This document shows, in pieces, positions 2,262 to 5,200 of a DNA stretch of 43,617 bases (the first letter of the stretch is position 1; the number at the start of each line of letters is the position of its first letter). The notes under the pieces were generated by a model. That model did not search any database. It saw only the letters and a program-made list of their open reading frames with translations, and was not told where the DNA came from. Origin of the DNA: Candidatus Collierbacteria bacterium (GTDB lineage: Bacteria; Patescibacteriota; Microgenomatia; UBA1400; MFAQ01); the NCBI GenBank assembly GCA_023245265.1, contig JAHFKQ010000001.1, positions 1 through 43,617 on the forward strand, written 5' to 3'. The translations under genes and the position numbers were made by a program.

Positions 2262-5200
2262 GATTTACTCTTCGAACATTAGTACAGATAACCTAAACAA
2301 TTTACATTGCTTACAGCCTCTGCCTATCAACGTTGTAGTCTACAACGGTTCTTTCGTCCCTCACGGGACATGGATTTCTCATCTTGGGAATGGCTTCTCG
2401 CTTAGATGCATTCAGCGATTATCCAATACCATTGTGGCTACCCAGCAATGCGCCTGACGGCAACAACTGGCACACCAGGGAATGGCTCATCTCGGTCCTC
2501 TCGTACTGGAGACAAACTCCCTCAAAAATCCCACGCTGACAGCGGATAGAGACCAACCTGTCTTACGACGGTTTGAACCCAGCTCACGTAGCGCTTTAAT
2601 GGGCGAACAGACCAACCCTTGGGACCTTCTTCAGCCCCAGGATGCGCTGAGCCGACCAAAATATATAGAAAATTCTATGTATTGTGCTCTCCAACTATTA
2701 CTAGTGGTTTGGACTATATCTTTCGTATTAGAAACTTTTTATATTCACTCGTTTCTGCTACTTATTGGCGTGTTATATCCTATTTAAAATAGGGTATCTC
2801 ACCATAATCAAACTAATGACTATGGATCAGTCTCTACGGGGTCAATTCTTTCGAACGACTTCCCACGATGTTAACCTTAAGTGTTCATTTCAAGGCCTTC
2901 TTCGTTATAAGCCAAATTTATTTCCTCGACATGTTTGGGTCATTGTCTATCGAGGTAGCGAACCGCACCGTCGCTGTGGACGCTCAGGTGCGACTACTCT
3001 GTTATCCCCGGGGTAGCTTTTATCCGTTAAGCCCGGTACCTCCCACGAAGTACACGAGGATCACTTAGACCTACTTTCGTATCTGATCGACTTGTATGTC
3101 TCACAGTTAAGCACCCATATACCTATGCGCTTACACTCCGATTTCCATCCGGAGAAAGGGTACCTTTGTGCGCTTGCGTTACTCTTTAGCAAGCAACCTC
3201 CCCAGTTAAACTACCCACCAGACAGTGTTCCCTCCAAAGTTTGCATTTGGATTAGGTTAGAAACATGCGTCGCAAAGAGAGGTATTTCATTGTCGTATCA
3301 ACAATAAATTGCTAACACTCCCTCCTATGCTAAACAGTTACAGCACACATTTCAGTGCCAAGTTGTAGTAAAGCTCCACGGGGTCTTTTTGTCCTGCTGC
3401 CAGTAGGCCGCATCTTCACAGCCAATTCAAATTCGCCGAGTCTCTTCTCAAGACAGTTATAAAGTCGTTTCACCTTTCGTGCAGGTCGGAACTTACCCGA
3501 CAAGGAATTTCGCTACCATAGAACAGTTATAGTTACTGCTGCCGTTCACCGGGGCTTCAATTGCAGGCTCACAAAATCTTGCGATTCTGGTCACCCACGC
3601 ATTTAACCTTCCGGCACTGGGCAGGTTTCAGCCTGTATACTTAAGATTTCTCTTTTGCACAGACCTGTGTTTTTGTTAAACAGCCGCTTTATACTCTTTT
3701 GTTGTAGCCCAGATCTTAACCTGGGCAAGGCATCTCGTAGAACTTACGCCTAGCTAATTTGCCGAGTTCCTTAAGAAGAGTTCTCTCGCTATCCTTGGTC
3801 TACTCGACCAGAGCACCTGTGTCGGTTTGTGGTACGGATTATCTGCACTCTCATTGCGACGCTTTTCTCGGAAACTGAAATCATCCATCTTGCCCACCTT
3901 ACGGCAGACTCGTATTCATAACTCGTATAAACGCCACTGCGGATTTGCCAACAGTGACTGACTTGCTATTTAAGCGTATGTATCTTCAACACACCGCTTG
4001 GACTATCCAACTTCGTCCCGCCCCAATTAATAACGATTACAGACAAGGACTGGAATATCAACCAGTAATCCATCGGCTACGCCATAAAGGCCTTACCTAA
4101 GGGTCGCCTTACTCTACGTCGACGAACGTTGCGTAGAAAACCTTGCTCATTCGGATATAAAGATTCTCACTTTATTACGCTACTCATGCCGGCATTCTCA
4201 CTTCTTGCTGCTCCAGAATACCTTCCGGTACGCCTTCAAAGCTACAAGAACGCTCCTCTACCAACCCGGTCTTGCGACCGTGTTCCCAAAATTCGGTAAT
4301 ACATTTAGCCTCGTTACATCTTCAGTCGTGTATCTCTCGGCTAGTGAGCTGTTACGCTTTCTTTCAAGGATGGCTGCTTCTGAGCCGACCTCCTAGGTGT
4401 CTGAGAAATGACACGTCTTTTACCACTTAATGTATATTTAGAGACCTTATTTGTGGGTCTGGGATGTTTCCCTTTCGCCCCCGGAGCTTAGCCCCCGGGT
4501 ACTGACTCCCGCACAATTGATATGGGTATTTGGAGTTTGGTTGAAAGACACGATTTTACTCGTGAAGTTCATTCAGTAACTCTACCCCCCATACCGTAAA
4601 TGCGAGGCCATGCCAAAACATGTTTCGAGGAGAACCAGCTATCTCCAGGTTCGTTAGGCATATTACCTCTAACCACAAGTCATCCGAGAATTTTGCGACA
4701 TTCAACGGTGCGGTCCTCCAGTCGACTTTCGTCGACCTTCAACCTGCTCATGGTTAGCTCACCTGGTTTCGGGTCTACACAACACAACTACACGCCCTGT
4801 TAAGACTTGGTTTCCCTTCGGCTTCCCGGAACATATCGGTTAACCTTGCTGTGTTGAGTAACTCGCCGGCTCATTCTTCAATAGGCACGCCGTCATCCGA
4901 ATAAATTCGGACTCCGACTGTTTGTTAGCAATCAGTTTCAGGATCTTTTAATAGGGCTACTCACCCTTCTTTTCACCTTTCCCTCGCGGTACTAGTTCAC
5001 TATCGGTCAGTAAAAATAATTAGTCTTGGACTGTGGTCAGCCCGGATTCGATCTAGAGTTTGCCGTCTCCAGATTTACTTAGGTACCAGACTTTAGTTTT
5101 TCCAATTTCGAATACGGGACTCTCACCCCCTATGGTCAACTATTCCAAATTGTTCTTCTATCAGAAAAACTAAGTTATGTCTGGCCCTGCAACCCCGTAA

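Follow-up and report, generated by a model that had tools for sequence, protein, structure and literature searches.

The stretch of DNA analysed here (the window) comprises the 43,617 nucleotides (nt) of contig JAHFKQ010000001.1, from assembly GCA_023245265.1 of a Candidatus Collierbacteria bacterium. Its minus strand carries a 23S ribosomal RNA (rRNA) gene (5480..2260; 2319.6 bits, full model) which is intact except for one insert, a candidate group I intron of 292 nt that splits the gene at 2657-2948; all features of the intron given below lie on this same strand. The reverse complement of 2657-2948 is flanked by ...GCUACCUCGAU upstream and GUCGGCUCAGC... downstream. The string CCTCGATGTCGGCTC begins at 2498 in rrlH of Escherichia coli, from which our numbering is taken, and the insertion point is thus U2504|G2505, a junction at which the uninterrupted exons read CCUCGAUGUCGGCUC. 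A shift of one base in either direction breaks the rRNA consensus, and the boundary is therefore unambiguous. The site falls in the central loop of 23S domain V, a single-stranded part of the peptidyl-transferase centre. The original prediction, made from the letters of the sequence, had placed an insert of this length after U2504 and was right to do so; its statements about the sequence all hold on the minus strand, which it had omitted to mention.

Without the insert the gene measures 2929 nt, compared with the 2925 positions of the model, and the 2504 insert is therefore the sole insertion in it. The insert is poorer in G+C than the exons (34.6% versus 47.1%), and stops occur throughout all three frames of its sense strand, which bears out the predicted lack of an open reading frame (ORF). 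The upstream exon ends in U and the insert, AGAC...UUUUG, in G, as had been noticed. The exon U, at 2949, is the putative 5' splice-site base U2504 and ends the exon strand CCUCGAU (2949..2955) of paired region P1. Its partner is the internal guide sequence GUCGAGG, intron nt 19-25 (2924..2930), and the proposed pairing of the two is indeed available: seven pairs, including a wobble at the 5' splice site between U2504 and G19 (at 2930), all of them invariant across the 24 distinct sequences compared below. At the opposite end, the terminal G (omega-G) at 2657 marks the candidate 3' splice site and is preceded by a run of U; G is the last base in 30/30 of the site-2504 introns collected here.

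At the gathering threshold, Rfam calls no intron in the window. Below that threshold the group I family RF00028 matches the insert over the full length of the model (1-253), on the rRNA strand and with the 5' splice site correctly placed, scoring 21.0 bits (E = 0.0031) in a local search and 25.6 bits (E = 0.014) when 4227 families were run against the whole window, where it was the only match apart from rRNA and tRNA. The alignment agrees at two core blocks, GUAGAGACU (J6/7-P7) and AAGAUAUAGUCC (J8/7-P7'). The match is weak on its own, because its score lies below the gathering cut-off. The covariance-model search recommended with the original prediction was therefore borne out in extent, strand and splice-site placement but fell short in score. 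The window stretch listed for the miss at the RF00028 gathering score is 2691-3013. As for a group II intron, no such family appeared in the local Rfam scan even at E up to 10, and there is no ORF. Thermodynamic folding of the single sequence yields P1, P4, P5, P6, P7, two hairpins following P7, P8, P9 and P9.1, and the strong folding that had been remarked upon exceeds chance (z = -4.39 relative to shuffled sequences, with 0/200 shuffles folding equally well).

An explicit structure was drawn on the window sequence, comprising P1, P3, P4, P5, P6/6a, P7 (as a pseudoknot), P7.1, P7.2, P8, P9 and P9.1. P3 joins UUGGC (2911..2915) to GCCAA (2765..2769), the latter strand lying in a pseudoknot with P7. 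The P4-P5 domain (2865..2905) consists of P4 (ACGA/UCGU) and P5 (CCUUGA/UCUUAAGG-type), with A-rich joining segments J4/5 and J5/4. P6/P6a is the hairpin GGG-AA-GUCGUUC-GAAA-GAAUUGAC-CCC (2838..2864), a variable extension; together with P7.1, CCAUAGUCA-UUAGUU-UGAUUAUGG (2802..2825), it accounts for the two hairpins that the original prediction had singled out, both of which are present. P7, the guanosine-binding helix by analogy with other group I introns, is formed by G(A)GACU with its bulged A (2829..2834) and by AGUCC, the latter following J8/7 (GAAAGAUAU-AGUCC, 2711..2724) in the most conserved block of the group I core. This block is invariant and matches the RF00028 consensus AAGAUAUAGUC exactly, and both P7, with a G-C pair beside the bulged A, and J8/7 agree with the corresponding consensus columns. 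The remaining hairpins are P7.2, AUACCCUAU-UUUAA-AUAGGAUAU (2775..2797); P8, GUA..AGAAAC/GUUUCU..UAC (2725..2761); P9 (2692..2707); and P9.1, AAUACAUAGA-AUUU-UCUAUAUAUU (2661..2682).

P2 is absent from the window intron. The architecture (P1, no P2, P3 to P9.1) points to subgroup IA on account of the two hairpins P7.1 and P7.2, which separate P7 from the 3' strand of P3. A P9.0 is suggested by the run of U before the terminal G, which could pair with the AAA of J7/9: 24 introns combine AAA in J7/9 with UUU-G, while 3 combine AUA with UUA-G. We regard this correlated change as suggestive only, since the pairing register differs in two distant site-2504 introns, L017 and L018 (L numbers denote loci from the scans described below). 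Three loops are nearly invariant across the site-2504 lineage, namely UGAACA in L5 (2882-2887, invariant), a GAGUGAA-type L8 (~2740-2750) and the invariant GNRA tetraloop GUAA of L9 (2698-2701), and such constancy suggests tertiary contacts.

Homologues were sought in two ways. Firstly, one genome per species was scanned for the J8/7-P7' block followed, 39-69 nt downstream, by G+GUCGGCUC. This returned 26 loci, 18 of which are 23S genes with an insert exactly at CCUCGAU|GUCGGCUC; 17 of these inserts are ORF-less (287-348 nt, 62-91% identical to that of the window) and one, in L018, measures 979 nt. The other eight loci (L002, L004, L005, L014, L016, L021, L022, L023) lie outside rRNA and were dropped as chance matches. 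Secondly, metagenome contigs were scanned with the intron core blocks alone, without any exon sequence, which gave at least 120 loci (L028-L147) whose 23S sites were found by aligning their flanks to E. coli rrlH. A further 11 complete site-2504 introns of 264-379 nt were taken from the metagenome matches listed. In total, at least 29 ORF-less inserts (264-379 nt) and one ORF-bearing insert occupy the same junction in other, independent assemblies.

Comparison of these introns provides the decisive evidence for a group I intron. RNAalifold, given the first 18 sequences but no structural model, predicted P1, P3, P4, P5, P6 and P9, with 10 compensated pairs. Pairs of the explicit structure, including the P3/P7 pseudoknot, were then counted in 27 site-2504 introns (24 distinct sequences) that MAFFT had aligned by sequence alone. 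Changes on both sides occur in 43/77 pairs and in 187 cells, as opposed to 39-64 cells when the partners are slid, and 0/500 shuffles attain any of the five measures. Compensatory changes are plentiful in P4, P5, P6a, P7.2, P8, P9 and P9.1. In P4, all cells are paired (100%) and A-U gives way to G-C in 8 sequences; in P5, 99% are paired and U-A becomes A-U in 11. P7.2 changes on both sides at 6/8 pairs and P8 at 9/9, with 87-89% of P8 cells paired, while a C-G pair is replaced by U-A in 7 sequences in P9 and in 10 sequences at one pair of P9.1. P3 and P7, constant throughout the alignment, vary at greater distance: in L017, P3 exchanges U-A for C-G and the outer pair of P7 exchanges G-C for A-U, and in L018 the same two replacements are joined by a third, G-C for A-U in P3.

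The position and boundaries of the insert, its fold, its conservation and covariation, and its relations to other introns, all read directly from the data, lead us to interpret 2657-2948 as an endonuclease-free, subgroup IA-type group I intron inserted after U2504 in the domain V central loop, with a probability of roughly 90%. The group I assignment of the original prediction is thereby upheld by P1 with its U·G wobble, the terminal G, the 29 homologues and the covariation. Several points nevertheless weigh against this interpretation. The RF00028 score (21-25.6 bits) is well under the 50-bit gathering score, and none of eight relatives tested from sites 2504, 2500 and 2593 (L018, L034, L054, L077, L138, L084, L088, L062) reaches 50 bits either; this value, which the entire lineage fails to reach, is a cut-off set in curation and does not describe structure. 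The tested structure came from the window sequence itself, a circumstance which inflates the 88.0% of cells that pair under it (33.6-39.0% with slid partners), though not the counts of double changes. P1, P3 and P7 never vary among the 27 introns, and it is conservation, not covariation, that speaks for them there. P7.1 is only 60% paired on the MAFFT alignment, a hairpin being present in every member but differing in length and register. P10 is weak, amounting to four pairs (UGAC, nt 7-10, with GUCG) within the P1 loop, and is not conserved in the lineage. Lastly, splicing and exon ligation at this locus are inferred, and efficient splicing may need a protein, a possibility raised by the lack of P2 and the A+U-rich composition of the intron.

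The catalytic steps, removal in vivo and any need for a protein cofactor are inferences; by analogy with the established group I pathway, the intron would act as follows. In the precursor rRNA, P1 would arise from pairing between GUCGAGG and the last exon bases, CCUCGAU, its U2504·G wobble being the reactive pair, and an external guanosine held in P7 would attack 3' of U2504. The terminal G would then occupy the P7 site, possibly aided by a short P9.0 and the weak P10, and the freed 3'-OH of the exon would attack after this terminal G, joining U2504 to G2505 and restoring the peptidyl-transferase loop A2503-U2506. CPR bacteria (members of the Candidate Phyla Radiation, or Patescibacteria) mostly possess a single rRNA copy, and comparison of genes with transcripts indicates that their insertions are removed (PMC9297842 and PMC9698310, both citing Brown et al. 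2015). The literature thus supports removal for the class of CPR insertions.

The strongest competing explanation is that the intron, though derived from group I, no longer splices itself and relies on a protein, either of the host or acting in trans, such as a maturase or chaperone, or that it splices too poorly alone. The missing P2, a G+C content of 35%, a length of just 292 nt and the weak P10 are all in keeping with such dependence, as is the fact that the intron encodes neither maturase nor endonuclease; many organellar IA introns require proteins. This is countered by a catalytic core (the U·G wobble, the J4/5 adenines, the J8/7 sequence, P7 with its bulged A and the terminal G) that is invariant across hosts whose 23S differs by up to ~25%, and by peripheral helices that are maintained by compensation. 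An invariant core within a compensated periphery argues for a working ribozyme, if not necessarily an autonomous one, and we judge loss of self-splicing to be unlikely.

Far less credible is an intervening sequence which RNase III-type processing would excise without ligation, leaving the 23S fragmented. Bacterial 23S genes often contain sequences of this kind, and those of CPR bacteria probably do as well (PMC11270868). Known intervening sequences, however, replace the tips of helices (for example 9, 25 or 45) and have ends that pair as a long stem, whereas the insert discussed here sits at 2504/2505, where the central loop of domain V is single-stranded, pairs with the exon through its 5' end and leaves its own two ends unpaired with each other in the predicted fold. 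It also contains a covarying group I core, and a break between U2504 and G2505 would sever the peptidyl-transferase loop itself. Equally hard to credit is an insert that is kept in the mature rRNA, sits in a dead gene copy or results from misassembly: an unspliced group I intron is on record for the 23S of Chlamydiales (Simkania; Everett et al. 1999, as cited in PMC11270868) and a single rRNA copy is visible in the window, but the rest of the 23S gene is intact at 2319.6 bits over the full model, 29 independent assemblies have the same insert at the same base, where it has evolved under purifying selection and with compensatory changes, and 292 nt beside A2503-U2506 would be difficult to reconcile with a functioning catalytic centre.

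The group I intron of the window is the endonuclease-free form of a homing-type lineage, because one of its site-2504 relatives encodes an endonuclease of the LAGLIDADG_2 family. In this relative, L018, the intron (979 nt; L018:177-1155) has the same core and bears a 224-amino-acid (aa) ORF (L018:291-965) in its P6 loop. The ORF matches LAGLIDADG_2 with E = 2.4e-38 and, among solved structures, comes closest to I-SceI (E = 2.5e-11). The statement in the original prediction that no homing endonuclease is present is consequently true of the window copy but not of the site. Having no endonuclease gene, the window intron cannot home by itself; the most fitting interpretation is that it belongs to the site-2504 lineage, whose mobile form L018 represents, and either was maintained by vertical inheritance or has been stripped of its endonuclease. 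Further downstream, the 23S gene of L018 shows a second gap of some 330 nt in its rRNA match (L018:1233-1566), probably another intron. No evidence of a viral source emerged: the core pattern was unmatched in IMG/VR, and blastn found no match in 50,697 phage genomes.

The same core (CCCGUAGAGACU ... ACGCCAA ... AAGAUAUAGUC) recurs at multiple 23S sites. Among the metagenome matches listed, 2500|2501 is the commonest, with at least 49 loci of 248-904 nt, and 2504|2505 accounts for about a dozen; the other core-bearing sites in these matches are ~1952, ~2547, 2585-2588, 2593, ~2596 and 2657. In a neighbour-joining tree, 29 ORF-less site-2504 introns cluster apart from 20 short site-2500 introns, and mean identity is 0.82 within site 2504 compared with at most 0.68 between the two sites. 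The guide sequences match their own sites, being GUCGAGG at 2504 and GGGGUG (to ...ACCU|) at 2500. Separate clusters with guide sequences of their own imply that each site has its own lineage. Despite this separation, the CPR introns at site 2500, 4 nt upstream, share with the window intron the three core motifs just given, P7.1/P7.2-type inserts and a GNRA-capped P9; they differ in their guide, in possessing a P2 hairpin and, in many cases, in long inserts of up to ~900 nt.

The host of the window intron resembles a Collierbacteria-like CPR bacterium in its 23S gene, the exons of which are 96.4% identical to those of Candidatus Collierbacteria RIFOXYD2_FULL_45_13 (L026), 95.3% to those of a metagenome-assembled genome (MAG) titled 'Patescibacteria group' (L001) and 67.9% to those of E. 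coli. More distant hosts of site-2504 introns show 72-85% 23S identity to the window, and all sampled hosts look like CPR bacteria. Six contigs are titled 'uncultured Pseudomonadales' or 'Spirochaetia' (L007, L009, L011, L012, L025, L020), with 23S genes 93.8-95.9% identical to that of the window and 68% to that of E. coli. As their 23S is ~94-96% identical to that of the window and to that of Candidatus Collierbacteria, we consider these titles unreliable; they look to be wrong, or the contigs mis-binned. The intron is found in 18/18 sampled hosts whose 23S is at least 90% identical, a sample chosen for intron presence, and the apparent fixation is for that reason not established. Intron load also varies among near relatives: L026, L145, L042 and L020, with 93-96% 23S identity, display extra alignment breaks near exon positions 1958 and 2622 (E. 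coli ~1931-1952 and 2593), and the window gene has the 2504 intron only.

One could speculate that the ORF-less site-2504 lineage is not a decaying selfish element but has long been kept by vertical inheritance as a part of how Collierbacteria-like CPR bacteria mature their rRNA, with guanosine-dependent splicing at the peptidyl-transferase loop serving as a checkpoint that ties 50S activation to the GTP level or to the state of assembly. Such a proposal would draw on the presence of the intron in the 18/18 hosts that are at least 90% identical and on the constancy of its core over ~25% 23S divergence, and we lend it very little credence.

ORF-less group I introns in CPR 23S genes were first noted by Brown et al. 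2015. A later survey of 348 CPR 23S genes counted 433 group I introns, including 222 without an ORF; their sites, 23IS6-14, cluster round the peptidyl-transferase centre, and 23IS9-11, 13 and 14 were new for bacteria (PMC11270868; J Bacteriol 2024). The ORF-less introns of that study are found in the same host group, gene, domain V region and element class as the window intron, and they likewise have ORF-bearing counterparts with LAGLIDADG. Copies 89-91% identical to the window intron are already present in public MAGs such as RIFOXYD2_FULL_45_13 (L026). The survey differs in that it classed introns by Rfam similarity, while the window lineage scores under the curated cut-off. That rRNA introns are reported in CPR bacteria and are rare elsewhere, as the original prediction stated, agrees with PMC11270868 and PMC9297842, and the host identified here is CPR-like.

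Position 2504 itself is known from the mitochondrial large-subunit rRNA of Cryptococcus, in which the introns Cne.mL2504/Cga.mL2504 measure 344-417 bp when ORF-less and 1,032 bp with LAGLIDADG_2 (PMC5808193). The position is identical in E. coli numbering, and the pair of ORF-less and LAGLIDADG_2 forms mirrors the 292 nt of the window and the 979 nt of L018. These introns are, however, mitochondrial and eukaryotic, and the likeness to the CPR lineage is one of site and organisation only. With subgroup IA, which includes the td intron of phage T4 and, from yeast mitochondria, the omega intron with its endonuclease I-SceI, the window intron has in common P7.1/P7.2 between P7 and P3' and the J8/7-P7 block, and the endonuclease of L018 is I-SceI-like. 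It departs from them in lacking P2 and in having no detectable DNA similarity to phage genomes, and is placed at the level of IA as a whole. Bacterial 23S introns outside the CPR (L1917/L1951 in Coxiella; L1931 in Thermotoga, Simkania and cyanobacteria) are also group I introns at conserved functional sites, and some are ORF-less, but they occupy other sites (domain IV, helices 69-71) in other host phyla. Earlier work has therefore already described ORF-less group I introns round the peptidyl-transferase centre of CPR bacteria, as well as group I introns at position 2504, and our results leave that picture unchanged.

What the locus adds is a very small, well-delimited candidate ribozyme of IA type at the peptidyl-transferase centre, with strong comparative support, and its compactness could make it a convenient system in which to test self-splicing in CPR bacteria. 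Annotators of the gene must cut the intron out in silico to obtain the mature 23S. Since RF00028 stays below threshold for all members tested, generic tools miss the lineage; standard annotation leaves it unlabelled, and such inserts may pass for assembly errors or unclassified insertions. An ATG-initiated ORF on the plus strand (2482-2787, 101 aa), the only one listed across the insert, was rejected as a gene, as it is antisense to 23S exon and intron. It is almost certainly spurious, yet a gene caller could take it up.

The rRNA genes of the window are unlinked, all on the minus strand: the 16S gene lies at 29050..27555, at a distance from the 23S gene and the 5S gene (2141..2025). Proceeding from the 16S gene, one meets an ORF for a formate/nitrite transporter (26911-26021) and tRNA-Ile (25456-25382). 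Ordinary genes, lying on either strand, fill the next ~20 kb, among them Dus (22946-21918), a CHASE/PAS histidine kinase (19363-17264) and SIMPL (6628-5882); tRNA-Ala (5703-5630), 23S and 5S follow. The usual spacer tRNAs are accordingly split, Ile being kept with the 16S gene and Ala with the 23S gene.

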